The notes beneath the pieces were generated by a model. The model made no database searches and was not told where the DNA came from. It was given only the letters and a program-made list of their open reading frames with translations. A DNA stretch of 54,678 nucleotides, taken from IMG/VR virus record IMGVR_UViG_3300012919_001792, positions 1 to 54,678 of that record; one strand, written 5' to 3'. Shown here one piece after another: positions 1-54,678 of the stretch (the stretch's first letter is position 1; each line of letters begins with the position of its first letter). Both the position numbers and the translations under genes were made by a program. This DNA is from a virus. Taxonomy: Duplodnaviria; Caudoviricetes.

Positions 1-86
1 AGGCCACTGCGATCTATGTGAACAGCCTGAGTGACATTGCCAACACTCATGAAGTTCTTCATTGTGATAGTTTTTAATTTAAGCAT
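1..86 (-). CDS. gp46: Recombination endonuclease ATPase subunit (T4 gp46/SbcC/Rad50-like), 5' end only; runs off the window
   Basis: Read by hand: ATG at 86 gives MLKLKTITMKNFMSVGNVTQAVHIDRSG. KNFMSVGN is the typical gp46/SbcC N-terminus. Overlaps the gp47 stop by 8 nt. Confidence 0.85.
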   Translation of the reverse strand, partial: MLKLKTITMKNFMSVGNVTQAVHIDRSG

Positions 87-1101
87 TTAATCCTTGATAG
101 ATATCCGTTAGTAGTTTCTTGTCTATAAACTCGCTGTCAACTAAGTTTAATTGATTATACACTATTTGGTCAACACTTTCAACCTCTATATTTGCCTCTT
201 CAGCCCAATCAATTGCATGATCATCACGTTTGACTGGTACTAAACTGAATTCACGTAGGTTGTAATCTTTTGTCAGTGTTTCTTTGAGAAAGTTTGCTTC
301 TTCATAGCTAACATTTACATCCATTGCCACACGAGCATAAACATTGCTGTCCAAGTATTGTTCTGGTTTATCAACCAATTGGCTCAATGGTATTGTAATA
401 TACTTTGGTCCAGAATAGTCTACATACTCAGGCTTGCCTCCCCATTCCAAAAACATAGCACCACGTTCGTGATCCCAAGCATCTGCATAGTTGTGTCCAA
501 ACGGTGAACCCAAATAGTGTACGTTCTTTTTGCTTTGTCTTTTGTGAAAATGTCCTGAAAACACATATTCAGGATGTGCAAAATCATCTGCTTTGAGCTC
601 TCCGTGATCAGGCATGTCTACCATAGCATTCATTTTAAAGTAGGGCAACTCAAAATGTCCAAACACATAACGTGATTTGATCTTCTTCATGTTTTTCCAT
701 TCATCGCCTACTAACCACGGAACTAATGCAACACCGTTTTCTTCAAGCATAGCATCATTAACCATGTGTACATTATGATGCAATCCAGCATAAGGCATGC
801 TGTTTATTTCACGTTTTTCACGATAGTATAAATCATGATTGCCCATTATCATGTATACATTTTTAAATGTTTCTGCTAGAAAACCTACGTTGCTCACACT
901 ATAGTTTAATGTGCTGGTGTTCAGTGTAGCTCTATGGTGATGCCAATCGCCTAAGAATATACAGGTTTCAGCACCACGTTTCTTTGCTTCTTCACAGAAC
1001 CACAATACAAAAGCCTCACAATCATTGTTGTAGGTTCTATTGTTGTTTTTGTTGCCAAAATGAATATCTGTGAAACAAGCGACCTTGTCAAAAAATTGCA
1101 T
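79..1101 (-). CDS. gp47: Recombination endonuclease nuclease subunit (T4 gp47/Mre11/SbcD metallophosphoesterase)
   Basis: Motifs TDIHFG, LGDWHH, MGNHD, FGHFE, SGHFH; lies between gp55-like and gp46-like genes. Confidence 0.93.
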   Translation of the reverse strand: MQFFDKVACFTDIHFGNKNNNRTYNNDCEAFVLWFCEEAKKRGAETCIFLGDWHHHRATLNTSTLNYSVSNVGFLAETFKNVYMIMGNHDLYYREKREINSMPYAGLHHNVHMVNDAMLEENGVALVPWLVGDEWKNMKKIKSRYVFGHFELPYFKMNAMVDMPDHGELKADDFAHPEYVFSGHFHKRQSKKNVHYLGSPFGHNYADAWDHERGAMFLEWGGKPEYVDYSGPKYITIPLSQLVDKPEQYLDSNVYARVAMDVNVSYEEANFLKETLTKDYNLREFSLVPVKRDDHAIDWAEEANIEVESVDQIVYNQLNLVDSEFIDKKLLTDIYQGLNA

Positions 1102-1106
1102 TTGAT

Positions 1107-1964
1107 TTACCTGCTGGTTGGAGGAACTGTAGTATTCTCGTCAAGTTCTTTCATTTTCATTTCGTGTTCAATCTGTCTTGTCCAGCTAGGATTTTGTCCT
1201 GCTTCTATCAACAAGTCATCTCTGATGTTTTGATTGCGTTTTTCCAAATTTAGAACTCGTGTAAAGCTATTAGTTATGGCGGCTGTGTAGTATGCAAATG
1301 GATTCTGTGATTTGCTTTCGTCAAACTGCAAACCAATTTGTGATAGCTGTAGTAGTGCTTGACTACGCATTTCATCTACGTAGGTATAGCCACGCCAGTT
1401 ACTTCTCATACTATAACGTTGACACAACATCATAAACATTTTTGCTAGTTTAGGAGTTATTGTTCCGTGATCTATACTAAAATGTCCGTTGCCTAGTCCG
1501 CCTTCCCAGTGACTGCGTAGCACTTCTTCCCATTCTCCTTTTTTAAGTCTTACATGTTTGAAAGGAGGATAGTTACATCTTGAATGATGATCTGCTACAG
1601 TTTTTGGTTTGTTTTTTCGTTGTTCAAGCGGAATATGTTCAAATGTCATTATACGCACAACCAAATCATTTTTATCTATAGTGTCTGGATCTACAACAAA
1701 CTGATTTTGTTTTGGTTTTTGACTGCGTTTGCCATTCATTTCTTCCCATTCCAACATAGCTTGTTCGTACATACGTTCTTTCATACGTTTAGCTCTGTTG
1801 GCCTTGGCTTCTGCTATAGCTTCATCTGTGATGTCATCCATGCTTTGCACAATAACATCATATTCTGCATCTTCTTCTTCGTTGTACCAACAGAAACTAA
1901 GTTTGCTTTTGTGAATTTCTGCCAGCAAGTCTTTATTGTTAAGATAATTTACTCTTTTTGCCAT
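1107..1964 (-). CDS. gp55: Late-transcription sigma factor (T4 gp55-like), longer than T4 gp55
   Basis: NYLNNKDLLAEI at the N-terminus; RYSMRSNWRGYTYVDEM...FDESKSQNPFAYYTAAITNSFTRVLNLEKRNQNIRD; 55-47-46 gene order. Confidence 0.85.
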   Translation of the reverse strand: MAKRVNYLNNKDLLAEIHKSKLSFCWYNEEEDAEYDVIVQSMDDITDEAIAEAKANRAKRMKERMYEQAMLEWEEMNGKRSQKPKQNQFVVDPDTIDKNDLVVRIMTFEHIPLEQRKNKPKTVADHHSRCNYPPFKHVRLKKGEWEEVLRSHWEGGLGNGHFSIDHGTITPKLAKMFMMLCQRYSMRSNWRGYTYVDEMRSQALLQLSQIGLQFDESKSQNPFAYYTAAITNSFTRVLNLEKRNQNIRDDLLIEAGQNPSWTRQIEHEMKMKELDENTTVPPTSR

Positions 1965-1987
1965 TGAACCTCTTTCTATTCTGTGTT

Positions 1988-2016
1988 AGTATAGCGTGTC
2001 TACAACCAAAAGTCAA
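1988..2016 (-). promoter_or_regulatory. Sigma70-type promoter for the gp55-gp47-gp46 operon
   Basis: Minus strand TTGACT (2016-2011), 17-nt spacer, TATACT (1993-1988), about 24 nt upstream of the gp55 ATG. Confidence 0.75.
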
Positions 2017-2044
2017 CGGTTTTTCTCCTGGCTAAATACAATTA
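2016..2044 (+). promoter_or_regulatory. Putative late promoter (TAAATA core) at the head of the baseplate operon
   Basis: GGCTAAATACAATTA (2030-2044) is identical to 26306-26320; it resembles the T4 late consensus TATAAATA and is preceded by ACGGTTTTT. Confidence 0.65.
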
Positions 2045-2058
2045 ACAGAGGTATTCGT

Positions 2059-2667
2059 ATGAGATTTAGTGAAATTACAGAAGCAGTAGCAGACAATGTC
2101 GTAGTTTTCTATGGCGGTAGATTCCAACCCATGCATCTTGCACACAAACAGGTTTATCAACATTTGGTTGAGAAGTTTGGACCCGCTAATGTATTTATCG
2201 CTACAACCTTCAGTCAAAAAGCACAAAAGGCACATGTTATGGGTGATTTCAGCAGTGATCCATTTACCTTTGATGAAAAGAAATCAATCATGTCTGCTAT
2301 GCATGGAATACCTGCAGATAGGATAGTAAACACAAATCCTTACAGACCAGATCCAAATCTAGTAGGACGAAAACCAGAATCTACTGCCGTTGTCATAGTA
2401 TACAGTGCCAAAGATGCTGGAAGATTAAGCACCAGCGGATCTCTAAAACCATACAAAGATGGTGAGCTACAACCAACAACTGAAGTGCCAGCCTATGTTT
2501 ATGTTGCACCTGAAATGATGGGTGGCATGAGTGCTAGTGACTTTAGATCAGCTATGAGCAGTGACAGTGATGAAACTGCAAAGAAAAAAGTGTTTCAGCA
2601 GTTTTTTGGAAAATTTGATCAAAAGGTCTTTGATTTTATAAACAAAAGGTTGAACAATGATAGCTGA
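2059..2667 (+). CDS. HIGH-superfamily nucleotidyl/cytidyltransferase-like protein
   Basis: YGGRFQPMHLAH (HxGH-like), PFTFDEKK, MSASDFR. The start is moved to ATG 2059 because of the upstream AGAGGT SD and the late promoter. Confidence 0.75.
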   Translation: MRFSEITEAVADNVVVFYGGRFQPMHLAHKQVYQHLVEKFGPANVFIATTFSQKAQKAHVMGDFSSDPFTFDEKKSIMSAMHGIPADRIVNTNPYRPDPNLVGRKPESTAVVIVYSAKDAGRLSTSGSLKPYKDGELQPTTEVPAYVYVAPEMMGGMSASDFRSAMSSDSDETAKKKVFQQFFGKFDQKVFDFINKRLNNDS

Positions 2668-3253
2668 TAAACGTGCTAGGTTAACAGTCAAAGGTAGTTA
2701 CAATTTACCACTACAAGGTCCAGGACAAAATTTGAAAGCAAGTGGAGATGCTAAAAGTTTGGTTTTTCCATACAATCCTACTATTACATATTCAAGACCA
2801 GCAAATTATGGAGCATATGATCTTGCTCACACAAACTATCAACCTAGATTTTTTAGCAATACTTCATCGCCAAACATACAGTTAACAGCATTGTTTACCA
2901 ACAATACTGTTGATGAAATGAATTATACCATTGGAGCACTGCATTTTTTACGTGTGGTAAGTTTGATGCACTATGGTGAGAATGATGAATTTAGAGGTAC
3001 ACCACCACCCGTTTTGCTTTTTAGTGCATATGGTAAAAACAACTATCAAAATTTTCCAGTGGTTGTAACATCCGTTGATTATACGTTGGACAGCGATTTA
3101 GATTATGTTGAGTCTGAAGATGGAACTAATTTGCCAGCACAACTGTTTATTGCAGTTTCACTAGCACATCAGCCTGATTTGATTTCTACAAGAAAAGATT
3201 TTACAATTGATGCTATAGCAAATGGCAGTTTATTGGGTAGAGGATTTATATAA
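2657..3253 (+). CDS. Baseplate/tail-tube-initiator-like structural protein
   Basis: LVFPYNPTIT...GTPPPVLLFSAYG...FPVVVTSVDYT, a pattern typical of contractile-tail tube-like proteins; sits in the baseplate operon. Confidence 0.55.
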   Translation: MIADKRARLTVKGSYNLPLQGPGQNLKASGDAKSLVFPYNPTITYSRPANYGAYDLAHTNYQPRFFSNTSSPNIQLTALFTNNTVDEMNYTIGALHFLRVVSLMHYGENDEFRGTPPPVLLFSAYGKNNYQNFPVVVTSVDYTLDSDLDYVESEDGTNLPAQLFIAVSLAHQPDLISTRKDFTIDAIANGSLLGRGFI

Positions 3254-3552
3254 TGACCTATTATCGTAATGACAGTCATCTTGCTGGTACTAAAACAAAT
3301 TCTAAATTTACAGAATTATATGAACCAGCTAATCAATTATTCAATAGTGATATACAAAAGGTTACCATTGAATCCAAGCACAATAGACGACCAGATCTAG
3401 CCGCACAGGATCTACTGGGCAATCATAGGCTATGGTGGATATTCATGCACTTCAATCCTGACACACTCAAAGATCCAGTAGCAGATTTTACTTCAGGAAA
3501 AATTATAAATGTTCCTAAACAAAAAGCAAGCACAAGCACAGTGAGGCTGTAA
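3253..3552 (+). CDS. gp53: Baseplate wedge LysM-like subunit (T4 gp53-like)
   Basis: RRPDLAAQDLLGNHRLWWIF...NPD.LKDP..DF..GKIINVP. Confidence 0.7.
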   Translation: MTYYRNDSHLAGTKTNSKFTELYEPANQLFNSDIQKVTIESKHNRRPDLAAQDLLGNHRLWWIFMHFNPDTLKDPVADFTSGKIINVPKQKASTSTVRL

Positions 3553-3553
3553 T

Positions 3554-6427
3554 ATGCCAAAAAATATCATAGATGTAATGAATGACACTTTTGACACTAC
3601 CGGTAGACCTGGTGATGATGTTAAAATTATTGAAATACCAGATTTCATAACTGGTGGTGAAATAGAAATCAATAAAGGTGCTGATGTAGAAGATGATAAC
3701 GAAGAGCTTGATCTAAGTGGTTTGAGAAAAGACAACAAAGTTACAAAACCAAAAATATCAGATGATTTTTACAATGATGCAATTATACGTGAGTCAGAAT
3801 ATAGAAAAAGCAAAGAACTAGATGCATACAAAGATGAACTAGCCAGTGAGTTACCACAGCAGGTATGGCAAGAAAATATCCTCAATAACTTTGACAATCC
3901 TACCTATCATCTAACTTTGTACGTTGGTACCAAACCAGATATACAACTAGATCAATACAAACAACGAGGAGTTATTGTAGCTGAAACTGGATCTACTACA
4001 CGTTTTCACATTGATAATCTTGAAGTAGCATCTCCTGTAGGCGGAAGTGAAATAGTTTCAACAGTGGCACCTCAGATTACATTTCAAATTACTGAACCAA
4101 ATGGTGCTGGATTTTTTCCAGCGGCAATTACAGCAACAAAACAAATGGGCATTCCGCAGTTTATCAAGGCTGGATTTGCACTGGAAGTAAGATTCAAAGG
4201 CAGAAACAAAAGCACCAGCCAGCCATCAAACATAGGTGGCGGAGTGTGGGTTTACAAACTTGTAGTGCTGGACATACAAACCAAACATGGTGTTGATGGT
4301 AGTACATACTTTTTTACCACACGAGCAACAAGTCAAATAGCAAATCAACAGGAGTTTGCAACCGTCAAAGAAGAAATCACACTTAGAAATGTTGGAACAC
4401 TTGGAGAAGCTCTCAAAGATTTGGAAACAAAGCTAACACGATATCATAGGAATTTGGCAATAACCAAAGGTTCACAAACTGAAGATGAAGTAGTGATTAA
4501 ATTTCCTGGCGAGTGGAGCAAATGGGAGATCTTAGTAGTAGATGCTATTGAAAGCACAGACAAACAAAAAGTAACAAATACTGTACTAGAATCTGGTACA
4601 CTTATCAAACATTTTTTAGGAACATTGGTCTACTATACAAAACAGTTTGCAGAAAGACTGAAAGATGCAGGTGCTCATATTGACAATGATAATAAGTTTC
4701 AAGTAAAAGATTATCTAGGCAAGTACTACAAAATAAAAACTGATGTAGAATTCAAAGATCAATTTGATGAAGCTAGACAAGACTATCCTAAGATTATCAC
4801 TTATGAAATAATTGAAGTATTGGAAAGAATACAAGTCAAAGAATCACGCTTGAAAGATCTACTTGACGATAAAAGAAAGCAAGAAGCTACAGTGGCGTTG
4901 ATGATTAGGAAACAACTATTAAACAAAAGATACGATTATCTCAACACTGGATTGAATACAGAAGTAATACAATTTGAAGCAACACTTGATCAATCGCATA
5001 TTGTACCAGAAGCTATCTATGAAGGTACTACCAGCTATCCACGTAATACAGTAGCAAAAACAACTGAGGCTGTAACTCGAGAACAAGCTCTATCACCAAA
5101 TGCAAGCTATCAAACACTTCTACTAGCTGAAAAACAAGCAAAACAAGCCGTTCAAGAAGCTAGAAGAAAATTAACCGATCTTGAACGTTCTGGAAGAATA
5201 GAGTTTGAAGAAAAACAATTATACAATGAGCTAAAAAAAGCAGAAGCAGATGCTGTAAAATACAGAGATGAAATATCAGCTTTACGACAAGCAAAAGTAC
5301 AACAAAAAATTATTAGTGCTGACTATCTTGGAGACGTTGTAACTTCTACAGAAAATCTGCTAAGAGAAAGATACCTACCGGTTAAAACCAAACGTAACAC
5401 TACAACAGATCTATCTGCAATGCTTACTCTAGTTAGAGAAAGACAAATGATCACCAAGCATTTGCTTAATATTGAGTTGGGCATAAAAGGAGATCCATAC
5501 TGGTTAGGAGAACCAAGTTTCTATGAAGATACCGGTGGTGGTGCTCAATTACACGAAGACAGTACTTTTCCATACGATACCGGACCGCCTTTCTTTTTGT
5601 TCAGCATGTTTTTTCCAACAAACTATGATGGCAACGGACAAAGCAGACCATTGTTTAACGCACTATACAGTGGCGTGTATCAAACGTTTACAGTAATACA
5701 CTCGATGAGAGGTGGGCAATATCAAATTTTTATGACAGCAAAACGTGACACCCAAATACAAGAAGAAGTGGTAAAACAGATGGTTGATAATCTAAAGTTT
5801 GAATTACCAGATGGCAAAGACAAACCAACTGTAACTGAAAAAGACGGCAAAGATGAACAACCTAAAACAAGCGACGGTGCTACAGATCTAGGAACAGGCC
5901 CACCTGTATCAGAAGATTTATATGAAAGACAAAAACGTGCAGTTGATGTGCTAATGGAAGAAGGACTCACTAGAGATCAAGCCATTGGTATGGTTGCTAA
6001 CCTTACAGCGGAGAGTGCCTTGCGAACAGATGCCATCAATAGAAACGATGGCGGACCAGGCAAGCACAGTGAAGGTTTGGCACAATGGAATAGAACTAGA
6101 CTGGACAATCTCAAAAACTTTGCAGGAGTGCCTCTTAGTACGCCAACAAAAGACATACCATTTGATACACAGCTTAGATATATTGCACACGAATTCAAAG
6201 GCAGTGGTGGCAATGGTGGTGGTAGTGAATCAGCCGCATGGAACAAAATGCAGAGTGCAAATAATTTACAAGAAGCCACCATCGCTGGTAACTACTATGA
6301 AAGATTCAAAGACTACACAGATCCACCTTCAAGCACTAACGAAGTTGGACACAGAATTAAAATTGCAAATGAACTAGTTAATAGATTGAACTCTGAATCA
6401 GATCCAAAAAATGAAGGTATAAATTAA
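3554..6427 (+). CDS. Baseplate hub protein with C-terminal phage tail lysozyme domain
   Basis: ENILNNFDNPTYHLTL and IELGIKGDPYWLG...SGVYQTFTVIHSMRGGQY hub-like motifs; C-terminal AIGMVANLTAESAL...GLAQWNRTR...FDTQLRYIAHE (Phage_lysozyme2-like). Confidence 0.7.
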   Translation: MPKNIIDVMNDTFDTTGRPGDDVKIIEIPDFITGGEIEINKGADVEDDNEELDLSGLRKDNKVTKPKISDDFYNDAIIRESEYRKSKELDAYKDELASELPQQVWQENILNNFDNPTYHLTLYVGTKPDIQLDQYKQRGVIVAETGSTTRFHIDNLEVASPVGGSEIVSTVAPQITFQITEPNGAGFFPAAITATKQMGIPQFIKAGFALEVRFKGRNKSTSQPSNIGGGVWVYKLVVLDIQTKHGVDGSTYFFTTRATSQIANQQEFATVKEEITLRNVGTLGEALKDLETKLTRYHRNLAITKGSQTEDEVVIKFPGEWSKWEILVVDAIESTDKQKVTNTVLESGTLIKHFLGTLVYYTKQFAERLKDAGAHIDNDNKFQVKDYLGKYYKIKTDVEFKDQFDEARQDYPKIITYEIIEVLERIQVKESRLKDLLDDKRKQEATVALMIRKQLLNKRYDYLNTGLNTEVIQFEATLDQSHIVPEAIYEGTTSYPRNTVAKTTEAVTREQALSPNASYQTLLLAEKQAKQAVQEARRKLTDLERSGRIEFEEKQLYNELKKAEADAVKYRDEISALRQAKVQQKIISADYLGDVVTSTENLLRERYLPVKTKRNTTTDLSAMLTLVRERQMITKHLLNIELGIKGDPYWLGEPSFYEDTGGGAQLHEDSTFPYDTGPPFFLFSMFFPTNYDGNGQSRPLFNALYSGVYQTFTVIHSMRGGQYQIFMTAKRDTQIQEEVVKQMVDNLKFELPDGKDKPTVTEKDGKDEQPKTSDGATDLGTGPPVSEDLYERQKRAVDVLMEEGLTRDQAIGMVANLTAESALRTDAINRNDGGPGKHSEGLAQWNRTRLDNLKNFAGVPLSTPTKDIPFDTQLRYIAHEFKGSGGNGGGSESAAWNKMQSANNLQEATIAGNYYERFKDYTDPPSSTNEVGHRIKIANELVNRLNSESDPKNEGIN

Positions 6428-7668
6428 TGAGCAAAAATTGGACAACTAGAAATACTACTATGGGACATGCTGATGGCAAAATGGATATGCCATCAAGCCA
6501 CAAGCAACTTCCTAAACAGGGATTGTACCTAGCAAGAGTGGTCAACAACAGCGATCAACAGTACAATGGTAGATTTACAGTTGAACTATTGGACAGCATG
6601 AATGAACCTACAACCACGCCTGATCCAGCAGGCCATACCGGAACATTTACTGTAATACCTACTTCGCCTTTTGGTGGTACTACTGACGCTAGTGTTGCCA
6701 CTGACAATAAAAAATATGCAACCAGTCAAAAAAGTTATGGTATGTCTCCGCAAGCACCTCCAATTGGAGCTACTGTTCTTGTGTTTTTTATCAAAGAACA
6801 ACAAGAAGGTTTTTATATGGGTAGCATATATGACGTTGATAGAAACTACAGTATTCCAGGACTAGCTCATGCAAAAATAAATGAAAGAGGTGATAGAGGA
6901 CCTGCTAGTGAACTCAATCCAAACAATAAAGATTATGAAAAGAAAATTAGAGGTGTACACCCTGGGTTTGCAAACACAGTAGAAGCAGGTTTGGCAGGTG
7001 ATTATATTAGAGGATTGAACAGTAGTGGTATGCGAAGAGATACCATCAACAATGCATTTGGATTTACAACTGCCAGTGGACATAGTTTTGTAATGGATGA
7101 TGGCGGTAGTGCAGGCACAGATGCTGGTGTTAGAATACGTACAGCCAGTGGAGCTCAAATACTGCTACACGATGAGGCCGCAACAATTTATATCAACAAT
7201 GCAGTGGGCAGTGCTTATATTGAAATTGACAATGCAGGACATGTTGATGTTTACAGTGCAACCAGTTTCAATGTGCATGCTGAAGAACAGATAAATTTTA
7301 AAACAGGTGGTGCATTCAATGTTGAAGCAAACAGCATCAACCTTAAAAGTATTCAAGCTGGCATAAAAATGGAAAGTGCAACAGGCAAAATTGAAATGCA
7401 CAGTGCAACTGATGTTACTATAAGTGCAGACGGTAACGGCAACCTAAATTTTAGCAGTGGTAATCTACGTGCTACTGCAAATAGAATTGACTGGAATGGA
7501 CCACCAGCAGATAAGGCCGAAAAGCCTGAAAAAGGTGCTCTCGCTAGAAACACTGGAGTTAAAGAAAGTATAGCTGGCAGAGTGCCAGAACATGAGCCAT
7601 GGGGCGGGCGTGATACATTTGCCGCCGGTTCAGCCGCCGGAGCAGAATCTAAAGCAGGACCAAGATAA
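6427..7668 (+). CDS. gp5: Baseplate central spike (gp5/VgrG-like OB fold plus beta-helix)
   Basis: YLARVVNNSD...GRFTV...PPIGATVLVFF; GHSFVMDD, RIRTASGAQILLHD; repetitive beta-strand C-terminus; PEHEPW. Confidence 0.75.
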   Translation: MSKNWTTRNTTMGHADGKMDMPSSHKQLPKQGLYLARVVNNSDQQYNGRFTVELLDSMNEPTTTPDPAGHTGTFTVIPTSPFGGTTDASVATDNKKYATSQKSYGMSPQAPPIGATVLVFFIKEQQEGFYMGSIYDVDRNYSIPGLAHAKINERGDRGPASELNPNNKDYEKKIRGVHPGFANTVEAGLAGDYIRGLNSSGMRRDTINNAFGFTTASGHSFVMDDGGSAGTDAGVRIRTASGAQILLHDEAATIYINNAVGSAYIEIDNAGHVDVYSATSFNVHAEEQINFKTGGAFNVEANSINLKSIQAGIKMESATGKIEMHSATDVTISADGNGNLNFSSGNLRATANRIDWNGPPADKAEKPEKGALARNTGVKESIAGRVPEHEPWGGRDTFAAGSAAGAESKAGPR

Positions 7669-8420
7669 TGACTTACAGTGCAACACCAACTGGATCTGGA
7701 AGAACACTACAAACACTACAATCATATCCTAGTGCAAAGTTGATAGAATGGAGTGATTTTACTGTTAAAGACTCGTTGGATGCTACAGTTATTGAACCTA
7801 TAGAAAATCGTGAACTGAGTGCGAAAGCGGTGAGTGTATTACTTTTGAAATACGTTTACAAAATGTACACAGTAAATGGTGTTATAGGCTACAACACTTT
7901 AGACACAAACAAAACCTACACCTATGGTATCAGCGAAGCAGATGCATTCAGTGATTGGATAATTGGTATAAAGAAACTTGAAAAAGGTTTAAAAAATGTA
8001 TTGCCTGCAAAATTTACTATTACTCAATCTCAGTATGATGCACTAGTGCTATTTTTTGTTGTGACAGGACAAATAAACAAAGTTCAAATTGTTGAAGGTT
8101 CGTTTGATTTAAAGAATGATATTTTAGCTGGAAACTGGGAAACAGTGGCAAGCAAAATATCATATGACAGTAGAGATTTCAACATAAGCAGACAAATTGG
8201 CTCCATGATGATACTAGGCGATTATGGACAACCATTACCACGTACTTGGATGCGTAACAAAGGAATACAAGTCACTCGAAGACAATATGAATTTTTAATC
8301 GATGGATATCAGATTAGACAAGCAGAACACAGTTACTATCGTGAAACCCAAAAATTCTTGCCAAATATGAGTGAAATGCGTCAAAGAGAAGTAGTAACGT
8401 ACTATAGAGCAAATCCTTAA
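7668..8420 (+). CDS. Lysozyme-like (GH24-fold) baseplate-associated protein, possibly catalytically degenerate
   Basis: IGYN, ITQSQYDALVLF, RQAE resemble the phage lysozyme pattern; no obvious catalytic Glu. Confidence 0.5.
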   Translation: MTYSATPTGSGRTLQTLQSYPSAKLIEWSDFTVKDSLDATVIEPIENRELSAKAVSVLLLKYVYKMYTVNGVIGYNTLDTNKTYTYGISEADAFSDWIIGIKKLEKGLKNVLPAKFTITQSQYDALVLFFVVTGQINKVQIVEGSFDLKNDILAGNWETVASKISYDSRDFNISRQIGSMMILGDYGQPLPRTWMRNKGIQVTRRQYEFLIDGYQIRQAEHSYYRETQKFLPNMSEMRQREVVTYYRANP

Positions 8421-8424
8421 AACC

Positions 8425-8446
8425 ACGGTTTTTTAGCTCATAAATA
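8425..8446 (+). promoter_or_regulatory. Putative late promoter upstream of gp25
   Basis: ACGGTTTTTT-AGCT-CATAAATA in the only sizeable intergenic gap here; ATG 5 nt after the core. Confidence 0.65.
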
Positions 8447-8451
8447 AATGT

Positions 8452-8808
8452 ATGAGATTTGTAGGATATACCACGGTTGATCAGCCACTTATAGCAAAAG
8501 TCTTAACTGACAAGGACCTTGCTATTCAAGATCTTAAAAACAATTTTTTTACACGCAGAGGTGAAAGATTGATGGATCCTGATTTTGGTAGTATTATACC
8601 AGAAATGATTTTTGAACCGTTGGATGATATCACTAAGGGCGAAATTCAAGCTGATGCAGAACGTATTATTACACTAGATCCAAGATGGAATCTACTTGAA
8701 TTTGCAGTAATTGACAACGAACATGATGTAAGACTTCAATTAAAGTTGGAATATTTAGATAGAACAGAAGAGGAAGTTTTCATAGCATATGAAAGAGATC
8801 AACTATAA
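8452..8808 (+). CDS. gp25: Baseplate wedge subunit (GPW/gp25 family)
   Basis: DLKNNFFTRRGERLMDPDFGSIIPEMIFEPLD...DPRW. Confidence 0.9.
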   Translation: MRFVGYTTVDQPLIAKVLTDKDLAIQDLKNNFFTRRGERLMDPDFGSIIPEMIFEPLDDITKGEIQADAERIITLDPRWNLLEFAVIDNEHDVRLQLKLEYLDRTEEEVFIAYERDQL

Positions 8809-33357: not shown

Positions 33358-33465
33358 TTATTCATAGATATGTTTGTTTTTTTTAGCTTTTTGTATTTTC
33401 TTATTCATCTGTCTTTTCAAACGCAGATACTTAATTTTGGTTTTGATCCAATTTAACCAAGACAT
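33358..33465 (-). CDS. Small basic peptide 1 (35 aa), C-terminus KHIYE; not in the ORF track
   Basis: MSWLNWIKTKIKYLRLKRQMNKKIQKAKKNKHIYE; GAGGAGG SD upstream; start overlaps the end of the SGNH-like gene. Confidence 0.75.
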   Translation of the reverse strand: MSWLNWIKTKIKYLRLKRQMNKKIQKAKKNKHIYE

Positions 33466-38731: not shown

Positions 38732-38810
38732 ATATGTGTTTCCCTTTGGCACGTCTATGTCTTAGCCATGTCTTTATTTTCAAACGTATTCTTGTCAACC
38801 ATTTTATCAT
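38724..38810 (-). CDS. Small basic peptide 2 (28 aa), C-terminus KHIYD; not in the ORF track
   Basis: MIKWLTRIRLKIKTWLRHRRAKGKHIYD; ATGA overlap with the upstream radical SAM stop and 8-nt overlap with the downstream SGNH start, filling the gap exactly. Confidence 0.75.
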   Translation of the reverse strand: MIKWLTRIRLKIKTWLRHRRAKGKHIYD

Positions 38811-45032: not shown

Positions 45033-45051
45033 ATAATACTGTCTCTAATTA

Positions 45052-45732
45052 TTATTCTACTCGCAGTAGACCATTGCGTTTGTCAAATAGTTTTTCTGCT
45101 ATAAAACCAGCAGTGTCATATTTGTGCAGTCTAATTTTTTTCCAGTTTTGATGATGAGTTCTATGATATCCTTCGCCAGCAATGAAAAAGTTTAGCCAAG
45201 GTACATCAGCTCCGCCTTCAGTTCTGTGTCCTACTGTGTTCAGCAAACCAAATCCTATCTTGGCAAACACAAAAGGAACTGCACAGAATCCTAACCAGAA
45301 GTATGGACTAATTAACACTGCTATTATATTACATATTATCAACAAATGCAACCAGTATTTATGGCAAAAAACTATGTCTTTGTTTCGAAACAAATCACGC
45401 ACATATCTAGTTGGAAATTCACGCACTTTTAAATTGCTGAAAAGCACACGCCAATATCCAACATATTTTGGTGCATGTGGATCTTCTTCGTGATCTGCAT
45501 GTTCGTGATGCATTCTGTGAATTGCTACCCATCCTATAGGCGAATCCACACAGCAGATCATCAACATACCCAATCCAATACGTTCGTACCATTTGGGCAC
45601 TTTGAACTGTTGATGTGTGTAGTGTCTGTGTAGTAGTATACTCACAGCCCAATGGCTAATTATTTGACTCCATACAAGTCCAAATAACAAACTCCATAAA
45701 AATAATTCAAGGCTCCAATAAAAACCAATCAT
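45052..45732 (-). CDS. Membrane fatty-acid (acyl-lipid delta-9-type) desaturase
   Basis: His boxes HRHYTH, HRMHH and GEGYHRTHH; DPHAP; hydrophobic segments. Confidence 0.88.
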   Translation of the reverse strand: MIGFYWSLELFLWSLLFGLVWSQIISHWAVSILLHRHYTHQQFKVPKWYERIGLGMLMICCVDSPIGWVAIHRMHHEHADHEEDPHAPKYVGYWRVLFSNLKVREFPTRYVRDLFRNKDIVFCHKYWLHLLIICNIIAVLISPYFWLGFCAVPFVFAKIGFGLLNTVGHRTEGGADVPWLNFFIAGEGYHRTHHQNWKKIRLHKYDTAGFIAEKLFDKRNGLLRVE

Positions 45733-45748
45733 TTATACTCCAATTTAA

Positions 45749-46450
45749 TTGTCATATATACTTATGATGGGTTATAGAGACATAATATTGAATGATGGCT
45801 ACACTATTATTCCTGAATTTTTAGATCGAGCAGACTTGAAAAAAGTTGTAGATCTTGAAAGGAATACTTCTCCATGGAAAGGTCTACACAAAGAATTTGG
45901 CTGGCAAAATGAAAAGATCTTTGACAAACAAGATTACGTGCATTATTGGAGTGTACAGGTAAAAAAACAAACACATTGGTTGCAAGAAAAACTGCATCCT
46001 ATTGTCAGTGACATCATGCAAACCAACTACAAATGGTTTTTGGTTGACTTTCATACAACAAATCCTGGCAGTGACTATATACTAGCACACATTGATACAC
46101 CATATCAATTTAGACCATGGAATCATATCACAGAATTAATTGCTGTACAATGTTTGATAGCAGTGGATGATTTTACGCACGAAAGTGGTGCCACACGTCT
46201 TATAGCTGGTTCACATCGCGAACAGACATTGGTTGAAGATATAGGCAGTAAAGAATTAGACGATAAACTTTTAGCTGAGGGCAGTGATTTTGTAGCACCA
46301 GCTGGAAGCGTTGTGATATATCATCCTCGAACCATACACAGTACAATGCCAAACATGTCCAACAAACCTAGGAGTGCATTGTTGTTGTGTGCAGTGCGTC
46401 CTGATCTCATTGATAGTTTGGTACACTATCAACCACAATACGAGGAATAA
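45749..46450 (+). CDS. Phytanoyl-CoA dioxygenase-family 2OG-Fe(II) oxygenase
   Basis: DGYTIIPEFL, AHIDTPY (HxD), DDFTHESGATRLIAGSH, GSVVIYHPRTIHS..PN.S..PRSAL; the true start may be ATG 45764 or 45767. Confidence 0.88.
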   Translation: MSYILMMGYRDIILNDGYTIIPEFLDRADLKKVVDLERNTSPWKGLHKEFGWQNEKIFDKQDYVHYWSVQVKKQTHWLQEKLHPIVSDIMQTNYKWFLVDFHTTNPGSDYILAHIDTPYQFRPWNHITELIAVQCLIAVDDFTHESGATRLIAGSHREQTLVEDIGSKELDDKLLAEGSDFVAPAGSVVIYHPRTIHSTMPNMSNKPRSALLLCAVRPDLIDSLVHYQPQYEE

Positions 46451-46454
46451 TCAA

Positions 46455-46982
46455 TTGAGATTAAAAACACTTAATAAATTAAAAATACTTTTCTTTGGTT
46501 TACCAGGAGCAGGAAAAACCACACTAGCAAAAGACTTTGCAGATCTAATAGGTGGTGTACATGTTAACGCTGACGAAGTAAGAAAAAAATACGAAGGACA
46601 CGATAGACAAAATTGGGACTTTTCCAATGCTGGCAGAATACGTCAAGCAGAGCGTATGCGACTTATATCAGATGGCATCATGCAGGCGGGTAAAATGCCG
46701 GTGGTGGATTTTGTTTGTCCAACAAATGAAACACGAGCAGTGTTTGAACCCAACAGTTTTCAAACCTTTACAGTATTCATGGACACCATTACAGAATCTG
46801 AATATGCAGATACAAATGCAGTGTTTGAAAAACCAGCACCAAACTATGTTGACTATCACGTACAAGCATGGTTCAAAGATACACACGAAGTACTCGTGCC
46901 TGTTGTAGAACGCTACATGCAAAAACAACAAAACACATTGATTGGGTATATAGGAAGAAGAGTAGATGAAGAGAGTGTATAG
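46455..46982 (+). CDS. Adenylylsulfate-kinase-like P-loop kinase
   Basis: GLPGAGKTT, NADEVR, WDFSNAGRIRQAERM, DFVCPT, DTNAVFEKP; TTG start at 46455 with GAGGA SD. Confidence 0.7.
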   Translation: MRLKTLNKLKILFFGLPGAGKTTLAKDFADLIGGVHVNADEVRKKYEGHDRQNWDFSNAGRIRQAERMRLISDGIMQAGKMPVVDFVCPTNETRAVFEPNSFQTFTVFMDTITESEYADTNAVFEKPAPNYVDYHVQAWFKDTHEVLVPVVERYMQKQQNTLIGYIGRRVDEESV

Positions 46983-47274
46983 AACAAACAGGCTGGGCCA
47001 AATCAAAAACTTTATAAAAGAGTCACACAGACTATCTCCAGTGGCGTTTTATTGTGAAATGGTTGAAACACTATTGCTGTTAACAGCTTCAGCAATTCTT
47101 ACATTCACAGTGCTGGATCCTGCTACAGAAATATTCATTCCGTTGTATCTAGCAGGATCAATACTTGGAGTTATCAGCACAGTGATACGCAAGGCATTTT
47201 TTGCCATAGTGCTTTGTGCTTGGTTTGTTGTGATGAACAGTATTGCACTTGTTACATTGGTGTTTGGTGCATGA
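46966..47274 (+). CDS. Small membrane protein (about 3 hydrophobic helices)
   Basis: Hydrophobic segments; stop is ATGA-coupled to the carbamoyltransferase start. Confidence 0.65.
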   Translation: MKRVYRTNRLGQIKNFIKESHRLSPVAFYCEMVETLLLLTASAILTFTVLDPATEIFIPLYLAGSILGVISTVIRKAFFAIVLCAWFVVMNSIALVTLVFGA

Positions 47275-48782
47275 TCACTTGGGGTTGGACTGGACTTTCG
47301 CATGACGCTAGTATGGCAGTGTTTCACAAAGATAATTTGGTGTTTGCGGCACACAGTGAACGCTACAGCAAAAGAAAAAATGATAAAATAATTCATCCTG
47401 GACTTATGCAAGACGCATTTGCTTATGGTCCACCTGATGAAATATTCTTTTATGAAACACCATGGCTCAAAAAAACACGACAATTATACGCAGGACAATA
47501 CGGTTTATTAAAAAAAGAATCGCCTGATTATTTTTTAAAAATTGTAAATGATACACTTAGAAAAAGTAGTATCAGCAACGGCAACTTACCACCTAGTCAG
47601 TATACAAGACATCATCACAGTCATGCCGCCGGAGGCTACTATACATCCACATACGATCATGCAACCATTGTTGTTTTGGACAGTATTGGTGAATGGGAAA
47701 CATTCACCATATGGGAAGGCATAGATAATCAACTGCACAAACGTTTTTCACAATCATATCCACACAGCGTAGGAATATGGTACAGTGCTATGACACAGCG
47801 TATAGGATTGAAACCACAGGAACATGAATACATATTGATGGGAATGGCCGCAATAGGAGATCCAAACAAATACTACAATGACATTAAAAAAGATTTTATT
47901 GCACGTATGCCTGATCAATCAAATCCGCGTGTAAAGTTTAAACGCAACTGTCATAGAGGTTGTTTGGATTGGAGACCTGATCTACGCACACCACAGGACT
48001 ATGCTGATATTGCCAGTGCCACACAGCGAATATACGAAGAAATATTCACAGGCATTCTAGAATACGCTCGTATTCATTATCCTTCACGCAACCTTGTGTT
48101 GATGGGTGGCTGTGTGTTAAATTGTGTTGCAAACAGTTTGGCCGCTGATTACTATGATGATATATGGATAATGCCCAACCCAGGTGATGCTGGTTCGGCC
48201 ATTGGCTGTGTTCTAGCACACAAAAAGAAAAGAATAAATTTTGATCATGCTTACTTGGGTACAGATATTCCAGGTCCTTATCCTATAGAAGAAGTACTGG
48301 AAGATCTACACGAACACAAGATTACAGCGGTTGCTTCGGGCCGAGCCGAGTTTGGACCACGAGCACTAGGACATAGAAGTATCTTGGCCGATCCCCGAGG
48401 CTCCGATGTAAAAGACAGAGTAAATCAATTGAAACAGCGTGAAGCATTTAGACCTTTTGCACCAATGATACTTGAAGAATATGCTGATCAATACTTTGAA
48501 ATGCCAGTGCCTACTTCCCCGTACATGCAGTATGTGGCAAAATGCAAGCATCCTGATAAATTTCCTGCTATAGTACACTACGACAACACCAGTAGAGTGC
48601 AGACTGTTGGCAAAGAAATGGGTCCTGTACGTAAACTACTAGAGCGTTGGCACAGTGAAACAGGCTGTCCAATGCTGTTGAACACCAGTCTTAACATCAA
48701 AGGTCAGCCATTGGTTAATTGCAACCATGATGCAAATAGATGGATTATTAAAAATGGAGTTGACATTTGCTTGCCCGTATAG
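47271..48782 (+). CDS. O-carbamoyltransferase (NodU/CmcH/TobZ family)
   Basis: SHDAS, HSERYS.RKND, HHHSHAAGGYY, EYILMGMAA.G, GGCVLNCVAN, PGDAGSAIG, EFGPRALGHRSILADP, KQREAFRPFAP, LLNTSLN; start moved to ATG 47271. Confidence 0.95.
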   Translation: MITWGWTGLSHDASMAVFHKDNLVFAAHSERYSKRKNDKIIHPGLMQDAFAYGPPDEIFFYETPWLKKTRQLYAGQYGLLKKESPDYFLKIVNDTLRKSSISNGNLPPSQYTRHHHSHAAGGYYTSTYDHATIVVLDSIGEWETFTIWEGIDNQLHKRFSQSYPHSVGIWYSAMTQRIGLKPQEHEYILMGMAAIGDPNKYYNDIKKDFIARMPDQSNPRVKFKRNCHRGCLDWRPDLRTPQDYADIASATQRIYEEIFTGILEYARIHYPSRNLVLMGGCVLNCVANSLAADYYDDIWIMPNPGDAGSAIGCVLAHKKKRINFDHAYLGTDIPGPYPIEEVLEDLHEHKITAVASGRAEFGPRALGHRSILADPRGSDVKDRVNQLKQREAFRPFAPMILEEYADQYFEMPVPTSPYMQYVAKCKHPDKFPAIVHYDNTSRVQTVGKEMGPVRKLLERWHSETGCPMLLNTSLNIKGQPLVNCNHDANRWIIKNGVDICLPV

Positions 48783-48788
48783 TACAAT
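48760..48788 (+). promoter_or_regulatory. Possible sigma70 promoter overlapping the carbamoyltransferase 3' end
   Basis: TTGACA (48760-48765), 17 nt, TACAAT (48783-48788); lies in coding sequence, so it may be chance. Confidence 0.45.
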
Positions 48789-48892
48789 TATTAGAGTATT
48801 TGCCTATTGTAGGCAAAAGATTGAAAAAACGTAGACGTAGACGTGAATTGCTGGAAAAAATAAAACAGCAGGATCCATACATCTACGAATAG
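48767..48892 (+). CDS. Small basic peptide 3 (about 41 aa), C-terminus DPYIYE; not in the ORF track
   Basis: TTG start with GGAG 7 nt upstream gives MLARIVQLLEYLPIVGKRLKKRRRRRELLEKIKQQDPYIYE; overlaps the carbamoyltransferase stop; exact start uncertain. Confidence 0.65.
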   Translation: MLARIVQLLEYLPIVGKRLKKRRRRRELLEKIKQQDPYIYE

Positions 48893-48900
48893 GAGGAATC

Positions 48901-49092
48901 ATGTACGCTATTCAGTACGAACCACGAGTTGAAGATCCAGTGATTATTGCTAGATTTGAAACCAAAGCAGAAGCAGACTTGGCACTAGCTGAAATAATAA
49001 TACGCAAACCCAAAGCTGGAAAACATCACAAAGTAGTGCAGGATTGGACCATTCCTGGCGAAGAAGAGTGGCACAACCCAGCACCATCATAG
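48901..49092 (+). CDS. Hypothetical protein (63 aa)
   Basis: AGGAGG SD; fits the operon. Confidence 0.65.
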   Translation: MYAIQYEPRVEDPVIIARFETKAEADLALAEIIIRKPKAGKHHKVVQDWTIPGEEEWHNPAPS

Positions 49093-49102
49093 AGGAGACA
49101 GT

Positions 49103-49399
49103 ATGTCACAGTTTGATTGGAAAAGACCAACTGTTGCAATGTTAGGAACATTTCAACCTTGGCAAGAAGAAAACACAGACGAATTCAAAACAATACACAA
49201 AAGAACAAACCAGGTAGTTATACTGGTGCAAGAGTCACGCAGTCAAGTGGACTTTATGCACGTAAGAGATCAAATTCAAGACGAGCTAGGAGAATTGGGA
49301 TTCAATCATGAAGAAGATTATATAGTACAACCAGTTCCATATATCACTGATTTCTACAACACAGGCAGTAAAGAATATCGTGTTACCACGCCCGAGTAG
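49103..49399 (+). CDS. Degenerate cytidyltransferase-like domain protein
   Basis: FDWKRPTVAMLGTFQPW resembles the G(R)xQPxHxGH start of HIGH-fold proteins but lacks the histidines; GAGGAG SD. Confidence 0.5.
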   Translation: MSQFDWKRPTVAMLGTFQPWQEENTDEFKTIHKRTNQVVILVQESRSQVDFMHVRDQIQDELGELGFNHEEDYIVQPVPYITDFYNTGSKEYRVTTPE

Positions 49400-50150
49400 G
49401 ATCAAATATTAATTGATCTTTTTGCCAACTCCATGGACCAAATCTTAGATTGTCCACGTCAGCTTCAGCATAGAACCTATCCAAAGTATCACCAAGTGCT
49501 AGTCTAAATTCTAGTGCTTTGATTTCAAGATGTCTTGTATTATGTGGCACACAGTCTCCGTTGAGATATTTTAAAAGATTCTTTTTAAACATTCGCATAA
49601 AACCAGCATCTTTTTCATCTACATTGTAGTCTACATTGTAGAATTGACTAGCGTTCCAATTTTTATAATATTCTTTTAATTGAAGTTTATTTTCAATTCT
49701 TTTTATATTGTAGGGTGGTAGGTTACGCAACGGGTTTGGCATCCAGCGTTGTTGTTCTATCTGCATGTGTATTCGATCTTCTATGTAGCCTTGTTCTATC
49801 AAAGCACTGATGTACAGCATTCTATCTGAGCCTGGATGAGCAACCAGCGTGTTGTAGTTTACCCACTGCATCTGTTGTGGTGCTAGTACGCCGTTACGAT
49901 AGATATCACTGCCTACCACACAGGCCTTGTGCATGGTATACAAACCAGCTATTTCATTAAGATCCTGCCACGGCGTGGCCATGTATTCTACTATGTTTTC
50001 ATAGCGAGTGTCAAGTGGATAAAATTTTCTATCCAGTGTTATTTTTCTATATTCTTCTAGTGTGACTTCTGCCATATAGATTCTATTACCACTGCTGGCA
50101 AAGTAATCATCAACAACGCTGTCATCTTTGTTTTTAGAAAAATCTACCAT
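49383..50150 (-). CDS. Hypothetical protein with HPGSDR motif (possibly ParB/Srx-like fold)
   Basis: DIYRNGVLAPQQM...LVAHPGSDR; CVPHNT; paralogue of 50781-51704. Confidence 0.6.
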   Translation of the reverse strand: MVDFSKNKDDSVVDDYFASSGNRIYMAEVTLEEYRKITLDRKFYPLDTRYENIVEYMATPWQDLNEIAGLYTMHKACVVGSDIYRNGVLAPQQMQWVNYNTLVAHPGSDRMLYISALIEQGYIEDRIHMQIEQQRWMPNPLRNLPPYNIKRIENKLQLKEYYKNWNASQFYNVDYNVDEKDAGFMRMFKKNLLKYLNGDCVPHNTRHLEIKALEFRLALGDTLDRFYAEADVDNLRFGPWSWQKDQLIFDPTRAW

Positions 50151-50857
50151 TTATCAATACCAAGTATTGCTCGCATGCGATAATACTGTAGATCCTGTGT
50201 TGTTTGTATATCACACCACGGTCCACCATTGGTGAAGTGTAAAGCACCTGCAGATTCTGTGTAATCATATTCATCAACCAGCCAGTTCCAGCGTAGATCC
50301 AAACCTCCTATCTCTTCGTCTTGTAAATGTAAAAATCTATGCAACTGTTTAGGCTCAGCACTGTTACAGTATTCAGGTGTTAGCACTCGATTACTAGGAT
50401 GAGCACAGTTCCACATAATTAAACTGCTCCAGTTCTTACGTGGAAAGTTTTCCTGTACGTGTCCAAATGCTTTGGTTTTAATTTTGCTTTCGTAGTTGTG
50501 TTTGCACACCATTACAGCATAACGATCATCACGTTGTTCCCACAGCTTGGTTACATCATCTTGCCACAAAAAATCACCATCACAGAATATAGCCCAGCCA
50601 CTCCAAAAACTACAGTATGGAATATAAAATCTACTGTAGACAAACGTGGTGCTTTCATTGTCTTTGCTGGGTCTGTCATAGGCAGGAATAGTCTTTGCAG
50701 TGTTGGGTTTGATAACTGCGTCTTTGCAGTAGTGTTGAATACTGCCAGTGCATAAATCATACATTTCTCTGTGTCTGCTGTCAAAACCAACGTGAACTAT
50801 AGGGTGTTGTGCAGTCGATTGGGCTTGTTGGATTGTATATTGTGTTAAAATTCCCAT
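50144..50857 (-). CDS. Glycosyltransferase (GT8-like nucleotide-diphospho-sugar transferase)
   Basis: VGFDSR, STTFVYSRF, GWAIFCDGDFL, PRKNWSSLIMWNCAHP, WNWLVDEY, HFTNGGPW. Confidence 0.85.
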   Translation of the reverse strand: MGILTQYTIQQAQSTAQHPIVHVGFDSRHREMYDLCTGSIQHYCKDAVIKPNTAKTIPAYDRPSKDNESTTFVYSRFYIPYCSFWSGWAIFCDGDFLWQDDVTKLWEQRDDRYAVMVCKHNYESKIKTKAFGHVQENFPRKNWSSLIMWNCAHPSNRVLTPEYCNSAEPKQLHRFLHLQDEEIGGLDLRWNWLVDEYDYTESAGALHFTNGGPWCDIQTTQDLQYYRMRAILGIDKW

Positions 50858-51717: not shown

Positions 51718-51730
51718 AAGGAAAATATAG

Positions 51731-53403: not shown

Positions 53404-54025
53404 ACAATACGATTGGTGGTGCAGTTGGCCAGTTGGCAAAGATGAACACCTAGCAGACAAAACTGTAACTGAAGATGGAATTGATTACAGCTACAACAAT
53501 CTAGGCTTTAGAGGCAGTGCATTTCATGGAACTAGTGGTATAGTAGGTGACAGTTATGTATACGGTACAGGTGTAAATTTTCCATTTGCCAATCAACTTG
53601 GATTAGACAACCTTGGTTGGCCTGCGGCCAGCAATGATAGAATTGTGCGACATGGCATACAGTACATTGGCAATTATAAACCAGAACTGCTAATAGTGTG
53701 CTGGACCTATGGCTACAGAAGAGAATGGATTACTCCATCTGGTGCACCATACGATTTCAAACGCAGAAAACCTGGTGGCGGTATTCAAGAGGCTGAGCTG
53801 GCACTAGCAGAACTTGGCAATGACGCATACGATCAATACAGTTACCAAAAAAATCAAATGCTGATACAACTTTACTGTAAAGCCAACAATGTACGCTTGA
53901 TTGAAATCAACAATCATACAATAGAGCTGGTTGGCTATGACCGTGCAGTAGACGGCAAACACCCAAATCAAAGCTGGCACAATGACATGGCTGATCTTGT
54001 CAAGGATCTTATTGATGCTGAATAA
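53387..54025 (+). CDS. SGNH/GDSL-like protein
   Basis: YNNLGFRG, GDSYVYGTG, NLGWPAASNDRI, IVCWTYGYRRE, DGKHP. Confidence 0.75.
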   Translation: MLESNKQYDWWCSWPVGKDEHLADKTVTEDGIDYSYNNLGFRGSAFHGTSGIVGDSYVYGTGVNFPFANQLGLDNLGWPAASNDRIVRHGIQYIGNYKPELLIVCWTYGYRREWITPSGAPYDFKRRKPGGGIQEAELALAELGNDAYDQYSYQKNQMLIQLYCKANNVRLIEINNHTIELVGYDRAVDGKHPNQSWHNDMADLVKDLIDAE

Positions 54026-54293
54026 TGTAACATGGGGACAAAATGCTGGCAAAAAACTGCCTGTTGATGTAGAAGCATTATCAACACGTGAACTTCAGCG
54101 TGAGTGCAGTAGAGCTTTGGCCAGTGGTGCTATTGTTGCCACGTCTGCAAACCTTACTAAGTACAATAAAAGTGCACCTCATAACAGTCACCTATGGTAC
54201 AAGGCTGTTATTGATGATTATGTAAAACAATACGGGGACTTGCCAAGTTGTGCTGGTCCTGGTAAAACTGTAAAACTGATACTGGAGGAATAA
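54015..54293 (+). CDS. Hypothetical protein
   Basis: ORF coupled to both neighbours; start likely ATG 54015. Confidence 0.6.
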   Translation: MLNNVTWGQNAGKKLPVDVEALSTRELQRECSRALASGAIVATSANLTKYNKSAPHNSHLWYKAVIDDYVKQYGDLPSCAGPGKTVKLILEE

Positions 54294-54678
54294 TGAACAG
54301 AAAAATACGTGATGCACTAGAAAAATTCTGCAAAGAAAACATTGGCGTAACTCCTAGTAGGAAAGAATTAGTATCTTTGGTTGATGATCTAGATAGGAAA
54401 GTAATGCACAATTACTTTGGCAATACAGGTAATTGGAAACCTGACAATAAAAATTTTAATGCAAGCGGAGAAGCCTTAGTTGAAAAGGTAAACAGTCTGA
54501 ATCCTAAAAAGGTACTAGATATAGGATGTGGATACAATTTATTAAAGGGTAAGATACAAAATCTATGGGGTATAGATCCGTTTAATAGTAATGCTGACGA
54601 AATGCGTGACTTGATGGACGCTAGAGTGGACGGAGAGTACGATGTAGTGCTTTGTCTAGGTTCATTGAACTTTGGTTG
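54293..54678 (+). CDS. Class I SAM-dependent methyltransferase, truncated by the window end; not in the ORF track
   Basis: Hand translation MNRKIRDALEKF...KKVLDIGCGYNLLKG...GIDP...YDVVLCLGSLNFG; GGAGG SD, TAATG coupling. Confidence 0.85.
   Translation, partial: MNRKIRDALEKFCKENIGVTPSRKELVSLVDDLDRKVMHNYFGNTGNWKPDNKNFNASGEALVEKVNSLNPKKVLDIGCGYNLLKGKIQNLWGIDPFNSNADEMRDLMDARVDGEYDVVLCLGSLNFG

Follow-up and report, generated by a model that had tools for sequence, protein, structure and literature searches.

Why should 54,678 bp of phage DNA contain not one copy of a five-base word that it would be expected to contain dozens of times? The stretch in question, which is the whole of the IMG/VR virus record IMGVR_UViG_3300012919_001792 (hereafter referred to as the window), has a guanine-plus-cytosine (GC) content of 36.7%, and the word is GCWGC, in which W is A or T. 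An initial annotation, made from the letters alone, had proposed that GCWGC is avoided completely along the window, and this proposal holds: GCAGC and GCTGC both occur 0 times on either strand, as a second independent pattern search agreed, against expectations of 39–91 (Markov models), 73 ± 8 (dinucleotide shuffles) and 58 ± 5 (codon shuffles). The sister words GCGGC and GCCGC are present 26 and 30 times, respectively, in the same window.

The Markov expectations for GCWGC were 39.3 (order 0), 73.3 (order 1), 81.3 (order 2) and 91.1 (maximal order), and 100 dinucleotide-preserving shuffles gave 73.15 ± 7.92. A set of 46 open reading frames (ORFs) was called greedily, and permuting synonymous codons inside each of them gave 57.9 ± 5.2 sites over 300 shuffles, with a lowest value of 43; the Poisson probability of a zero count at an expectation of 57.9 is 7 × 10−26. 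In 200 further codon shuffles, which covered all 4-, 5- and 6-mers, the expectation was 58.3 ± 4.7 (z = −12.3) and GCAGC/GCTGC was the most depleted 5-mer pair. A count of one or less was found for only six of the 512 5-mer pairs, among which the next largest expectation was that of GCGCA/TGCGC (1 seen versus 43). Measured against the Markov and codon-shuffled expectations that the initial annotation had suggested, the depletion is significant and the exact count lies far from expectation; the annotation's own rough estimate of ∼30 sites was too low and the finding is therefore stronger than was first thought. Of the 164,004 possible single substitutions in the window, 1414 would create a GCWGC site, and with so high a mutational supply the zero must be actively maintained.

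The missing target is narrowly defined. Equal depletion of all GCNGC words, which by the initial annotation's own standard would have refuted its proposal, is not seen; GCSGC (in which S is G or C) is instead enriched 2.4- to 3.7-fold, with 56 copies versus 23.5 ± 4.7 in codon shuffles and 14.96 ± 3.92 in dinucleotide shuffles. All 13 word pairs that differ from GCWGC by one substitution occur at 0.82–2.45 times their codon-shuffle expectation, the change from W to S being the most enriched (2.45-fold). The sub-word CWGC is present 319 times versus 285 expected and TGCA is likewise undepleted in the codon-shuffle comparison. Since neither the neighbours nor the sub-words are depleted, the target that is missing is exactly the five-base GCWGC.

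The gap is found in all three codon frames and is always achieved by synonymous choice. The initial annotation had noticed this by eye in Ala-Ala pairs, and the full count bears it out: in 50 of 50 pairs the leading codon is GCC or GCG, although Ala codons overall are mostly GCA or GCT (919 of 1110). The five strings that it quoted are all present where it placed them. They include two pairs written as GCC GCC at 7621–7641 (plus strand; GCSGC at 7621 and 7633) within a baseplate-hub-like gene (6427–7668, plus strand), an Ala-Ala-Ala run written as GCG GCC GCT at 25910–25918 (plus strand; GCSGC at 25910 and 25913) near the end of a gene encoding 4628 amino acids, a run of four Ala residues written as GCG GCG GCG GCC at 29058–29069 (plus strand; GCSGC at 29058, 29061 and 29064), with no GCW before the final codon, and the combination GCC GCT … GCC GCG GCC GCA at 32503–32527 (plus strand; GCSGC at 32504, 32516, 32519 and 32522). 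In frame 2, Ser following an nGC codon is never encoded by AGC (0 of 68, versus 253 of 1079 elsewhere) and Cys in the same position is never encoded by TGC (0 of 14, versus 48 of 192 elsewhere). In frame 3, where the preceding codon ends in G and the following one starts with C, CAG is never used for Gln (0 of 14, versus 158 of 671 elsewhere) and CTG is never used for Leu (0 of 24).

Coding DNA amounts to ∼38 kb on the plus strand and 16,776 nt (∼17 kb) on the minus strand, and both sets are free of GCWGC; the 4628-residue gene alone accounts for 13.9 kb. The minus-strand genes being equally free of the word, the avoidance is independent of the coding strand. A translational or codon-pair cause was considered and is ruled out by a pattern that spans all frames and both strands. 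Avoidance biased towards one orientation of the word, as in Type III-like systems, was also rejected: GCAGC and GCTGC are both at zero and the one partial avoider described below retains 23 and 12 copies.

The carrier of this sequence is, on the evidence of its genes, a marine, uncultured, Rak2/PA5oct-like jumbo myovirus. This assignment follows from a homologous baseplate wedge protein and a jumbo-sized genome. The wedge protein (1203 amino acids; gene at 8808–12419) matches PHROG 10646 with E = 7 × 10−278 and is 35–44% identical to its counterparts in PA5oct, Atu_ph07, SCTP-2, Phosso and GAP32 (tblastn; 93 records matched), while the CheckV completeness of the record, 15%, corresponds to a genome of roughly 350 kb. 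The stretch 3554–12419 is present in 20 of the 24 runs among the matches listed, which represent nine studies, all labelled as marine or seawater metagenomes. A megablast search of 20 kb of the window against cultured phages returned no near-identical phage. The moraphages described in PMC12619734 are a different lineage.

The wedge gene was used as the marker for a search of relatives and for a tree. Viral contigs were scanned with the wedge protein; 315 were confirmed, the best 79 loci were kept and their expected GCWGC counts were taken from an order-2 Markov model. The 52 distinct wedge sequences with enough accompanying DNA are distributed bimodally: 18 avoiders together have nine sites versus 457 expected, and the remaining 34 have 755 versus 788 expected, the latter agreement indicating that the order-2 expectation is well calibrated. 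At an expectation of at least 10, zero sites were found in 16 distinct loci (summed expectation 393). A maximum-likelihood tree was built from the conserved N-terminal 620 residues of the wedge protein using 68 of 80 rows; the other 12, with a wedge protein shorter than 800 amino acids or a locus shorter than 8 kb, were left out. The tree requires at least five changes between avoidance and its absence, all of them forced by well supported branches, and so small a number of changes was reached by none of 500 shuffles of the labels on the tree. The trait persists across the window's clade and is repeatedly gained or lost among relatives.

In the window's own clade, which comprises ten rows with wedge proteins 76–79% identical, every row has 0 sites. 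The sister lineage of loci L009 and L010, in which the wedge protein is 61% identical and the GC content is 42%, has 75 and 94 GCWGC sites, respectively. In L010, 72 sites lie inside ORFs aligned to the window; the encoded amino acids differ at 57 of them and are the same at 15, where the window uses synonymous alternatives, a split that is as expected at 61% identity. Public contigs from four further runs, each from a different study, lie on the window, and none of the 40 listed differences from it creates a GCWGC site; with only ∼0.4 expected and 380 further differences outside the list, this comparison has no power.

Longer records extend the observation beyond the wedge locus. A 68 kb whole record from the window's clade (G003) contains 0 sites versus 66 expected, as does a distant relative of 52,024 bp (G004:C1, the record of L065), with 57 expected, and a 108 kb contig from a metagenome-assembled genome (MAG) with a wedge protein 43% identical to that of the window (G002:C3), with 121 expected. 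A partial avoider is found in a second MAG: G001:C57 (335,231 bp) has 35 sites versus 450 expected. Its residual sites, 23 GCAGC and 12 GCTGC, display no strict orientation bias and are spread along the contig, except for a site-free stretch of 57 kb (∼122.8–180.4 kb). G001:C57 and G001:C77 gave identical scores and show a mirrored layout, and may represent the same phage region carried twice.

Comparable DNA lacks the effect. Pelagibacter phage HTVC008M and Prochlorococcus phage P-SSM2, both with a GC content in the range 34–36%, have 65 sites versus 33 expected and 67 versus 43 expected, respectively. Among 80 pelagimyophage-like loci, 40 have an expectation of at least 5 and only one of these falls below 0.3 times expectation (2 versus 6.8); among 16 cyanomyophage-like loci, ten have an expectation of at least 5 and none is low. 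For bacterial contigs from the two MAGs in which related phage contigs were binned, the observed/expected counts were 81/72.3, 87/66.6, 52/49.7, 37/20.4 and 60/48.6. With these controls normal, neither low GC content in marine DNA, nor being a marine myophage, nor the cells with which the contigs are co-binned can account for the absence. The phage counts weakly disfavour Pelagibacter or Prochlorococcus as hosts.

The absence is total, confined to one exact word, accommodated by synonymous codons, maintained within a clade, switched repeatedly among relatives and not found in controls. The proposal in the initial annotation of long-term selection at GCWGC is supported on each of these points, which fit selection acting on double-stranded DNA, with both strands and all frames affected. 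We regard it as probable that the word has been removed by long and strong purifying selection imposed by a host nuclease of either the TseI/ApeKI type or the BbvI type. On this explanation the hosts would possess a restriction endonuclease active on GCWGC when it is unmethylated, either a Type IIP enzyme (TseI/ApeKI) or a Type IIS enzyme recognizing GCAGC (BbvI). A site-free genome could not be cut, and any mutation that created a site would be eliminated as soon as the phage next entered a host that restricts. It is also reasonable to infer that the cytosines of the virion DNA are unmodified, i.e. that the phage is not shielded by hypermodification, because there would otherwise be no reason to purge sites that contain cytosine; the window being ∼15% of the genome, modification genes may nevertheless lie elsewhere in it.

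Enzymes of the required specificity are documented, as the initial annotation had stated: reports describe GCWGC as the restriction target of TseI (PMC3643589) and as the restriction and methylation target of ApeKI and M.ApeKI (PMC8557920). Both nucleases are Type IIP (G^CWGC) and their recognition word is exactly the word missing here; they differ in coming from a Thermus species and the hyperthermophilic archaeon Aeropyrum rather than from marine plankton. The annotation overlooked the Type IIS enzyme BbvI, for which a nuclease site of GCAGC 8/12 and a methylase site of GCWGC are reported (PMC4081073). Read on both strands, GCAGC marks exactly the sites of GCWGC, so that an identical absence is predicted; BbvI cuts away from its site, and sequence statistics cannot separate it from the Type IIP case. 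Chloroflexi genomes are much higher in GC than the window. From aquatic members of that phylum comes M.AbaBS3I, an orphan N4-methylcytosine (m4C) methyltransferase specific for GCWGC (PMC6329791; marine Chloroflexi, PMC8919816), which indicates that planktonic bacteria do possess DNA enzymes specific for GCWGC; the available account of it (PMC6329791) reports no nuclease partner, and it has no demonstrated link to the phage of the window.

The phenomenon itself is well known. A classical case is Staphylococcus phage K, which lacks GATC. Rusinov et al. (2018, PMC6286503) describe the avoidance of sites as a means of countering restriction that is widespread among phages, and the present example resembles the cases reported there in that a word targeted by restriction–modification (R-M) is strongly under-represented in a lytic double-stranded DNA phage by way of synonymous changes. 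It is unlike them in the size of the genome (a jumbo genome of ∼350 kb), in the totality of the absence and in its recurrence in several uncultured marine clades. New are this case involving GCWGC, the fact that it is complete over genomes of jumbo size and the way in which it is present or absent from one uncultured marine lineage to the next. Searches of the open-access literature, judged from titles and abstracts, turned up no paper describing avoidance of GCWGC by marine jumbo phages.

Other words are missing too. GCGC is scarce both in the window (6 versus 51–57 expected) and in its clade (11 versus 65), and the codon shuffle of the window also revealed shortages of CTGCAG (2 versus 15), AAGCTT (1 versus 17) and TCGA (23 versus 96). 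The avoidance of CTGCAG looks specific to the window's own sub-lineage, because the sister loci L002–L008 have the expected numbers (5–8 versus 5–8). The distant relative G004 has neither AGCT (97 expected) nor CTAG (116 expected), so that with GCWGC three words are wholly missing from it. L069 lacks ACGT (21 expected), the non-avoiding sister L010 is depleted in TTAA (1 versus 43) and TTWAA (0 versus 27), and HTVC008M is poor in GATC, CASTG and GANTC. Such a lineage-specific mosaic of missing words is the pattern expected from hosts that differ in their R-M repertoires.

Several observations weigh against a host nuclease as the agent. No GCWGC-specific or GCAGC-specific nuclease was found in any host candidate, and the selecting agent is therefore inferred. 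The G002 MAG (∼1.2 Mb, incomplete), which holds a fully avoiding relative, has no match to PF00145 or PF01555, and a protecting methylase would be expected if the G002 organism were the host, co-binning being weak evidence of a host and the MAG being incomplete. The zero count covers the window only, which is ∼15% of the genome by the CheckV estimate. Single-molecule real-time (SMRT) sequencing sees 5-methylcytosine (m5C) poorly. In the marine and lake SMRT methylomes described in PMC6329791 and PMC8919816, GCWGC methylation is given only for Chloroflexi, where it is attributed to the orphan m4C methylase without a nuclease.

Leads to a host are few. Jumbo-phage contigs of 44–335 kb lie inside public MAGs, namely L082/L083 (G001:C77 and G001:C57) and L085/L086 (G002:C3 and G002:C12). 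G001 is titled as a Neomarinimicrobiota MAG and G002 as a small gammaproteobacterial MAG with a GC content of 34%. Real cellular contigs are present in both bins, G001 encoding ribosomal protein S3 and G002 encoding translation GTPases, and their GC content is similar to that of the phage contigs; a bin shared on grounds of composition does not tie a phage to a host, and the co-binning of related phages with the two MAGs is a lead only. Comparison of window positions 1–20000 with 201 genomes of the order to which G002 belongs gave, besides G002's own phage contigs, only noise among spacer-like matches (25–60 bp at 76–96% identity). Pfam detected no DNA methyltransferase in the window. PF00145 matched three times, always on contigs of G001, and not at all in G002 to G005; with PF01555 there was no match in any of G000 to G004. 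For the phage records this means no match to either family in G003 and G004 and none in G000, which was searched with PF01555 only; the window, G003 and G004 cover 14–19% of their genomes, and absence from such fragments says little. Contig C48 of G001 (8.2 kb) carries small ORFs throughout, and no large gene of nuclease size stands beside its PF00145 methylase gene.

If not cutting of unmethylated sites, the phages might be avoiding methylation itself. Some hosts would carry a GCWGC methyltransferase, which might be an orphan, and others a methylation-dependent nuclease (of the Type IIM BisI family or of Type IV), and a genome without sites would never be methylated and would thus escape the methyl-dependent host. 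The components are on record: the orphan GCWGC m4C methylase of aquatic Chloroflexi (PMC6329791, PMC8919816), the reported cleavage of methylated GCNGC by the BisI family (PMC4926085, PMC11347163) and the mention of GCWGC among the Type IIM sites for which under-representation is frequent in phages (Rusinov et al., PMC6286503). However, BisI-type enzymes read GCNGC generally and GCSGC is enriched here, two alternating kinds of host are needed, and the same lineages also lack AGCT, CTAG and GCGC, as is usual under Type II restriction of the classical kind. We consider this explanation improbable.

A nuclease could also belong to the phage. Avoiders would then encode their own GCWGC endonuclease without a methylase, directed against the DNA of the host or of rival phages, and would be safe from it because their ∼350 kb genomes have been purged. 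Gain and loss of such a gene could explain the five or more changes of the trait on the tree; no methylase was found in the avoiders' fragments, and the co-binned cellular contigs have normal numbers of sites, which would be open to cutting if unmethylated. Against this, no nuclease candidate was seen in the window, which represents ∼15% of the genome, and the further palindromes that are missing differ from lineage to lineage, so that several phage nucleases would be needed where differing host R-M repertoires are the simpler account. We know of no well established precedent for protection by loss of sites alone, and we give this possibility little credence.

Loss without selection, through deamination of m5C at methylated sites, is very improbable and is contradicted by the spectrum of neighbouring words. 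The product of a C-to-T change at the outer cytosine, GCWGT/ACWGC, is indeed found at 1.35–1.57 times expectation, yet each of the three substitutions possible at that outer cytosine is enriched to a similar degree (1.35–1.58), not the transition alone, and the products of deamination at the inner cytosine are not enriched (0.93 for GTAGC/GCTAC and 1.18 for GCAAC/GTTGC). The strongest enrichment, that of W to S, cannot arise by deamination at all. Decay alone would also not bring 58–91 expected sites to 0 and keep them there across a diverged clade. A technical artefact of sequencing, of base-calling at modified sites or of assembly has a negligible chance of being the cause: nanopore base-calling errors at methylated motifs are known (PMC10687267, which mentions GCWGC), but the gap is filled synonymously, the altered motif position being the one that the frame in question leaves free, independent records with wedge proteins 76–79% identical show the same zero, the 40 differences listed from the runs of four other studies create no site and contigs of 54–108 kb are unbroken.

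The baseplate module (3554–12419, plus strand) contains, according to PHROG and Pfam, a tail-lysozyme protein, the hub-like protein mentioned above, a gp25-like protein and the wedge protein, and is T4-like. It is followed by the 4628-residue open frame (12419–26305, plus strand), in which a YHYH domain (residues 3733–3922) and a carbohydrate-binding CBM5/12 (CBM_5_12) module (residues 2081–2114) are recognized; its product is probably a giant tail fibre or adhesin. The depth of public contigs has a spike in the bin 12225–12891, which extends from the 3′ end of the wedge gene into the first part of this frame, and short GC-rich matches are found around 12357–12405, at the end of the wedge gene. 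At the left end of the window, a metallophosphoesterase gene and its neighbour (22–1950) display 69–72% DNA identity to positions 81175–83185 of G002:C3. Given that the wedge protein of that contig is only 43% identical to that of the window, this gene pair would appear to be either unusually conserved or exchanged. There are no tRNA genes within the window.

Minus-strand genes at 33453–45732 include, by Pfam, a cluster of radical-SAM paralogues, some six to seven of which follow one another in a run at 34902–45032 (minus strand). In several of these the SPASM match is N-terminal (residues ∼18–100) and precedes the radical-SAM core (∼128–315), which is the reverse of the usual domain order. 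Adjoining this run, the interval 45052–50857 encodes a fatty-acid desaturase, a PhyH dioxygenase, an APS-kinase-like P-loop kinase, a Nol-like carbamoyltransferase and a family-8 glycosyltransferase. These sugar- or lipid-modifying enzymes look like a cluster for the tailoring of small molecules or glycans. HTVC008M likewise has a carbamoyltransferase adjoining PhyH-type oxygenases.

Restriction-site avoidance is itself textbook knowledge, and the value of the present case lies mainly in its use as a marker linking phages to hosts. The marine jumbo-phage group to which the window belongs is abundant and uncultured, and splits cleanly into lineages without GCWGC and lineages with normal counts. 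Fingerprints of missing words offer a cheap handle, requiring sequence only, for grouping such phages by the defence repertoires of their hosts, and could be matched to those hosts once methylomes of marine MAGs that are aware of both 5mC and 4mC exist. The pattern suggests that the DNA which host nucleases encounter in these phages is ordinary and unmodified, in contrast to the situation in jumbo phages that form a nucleus.

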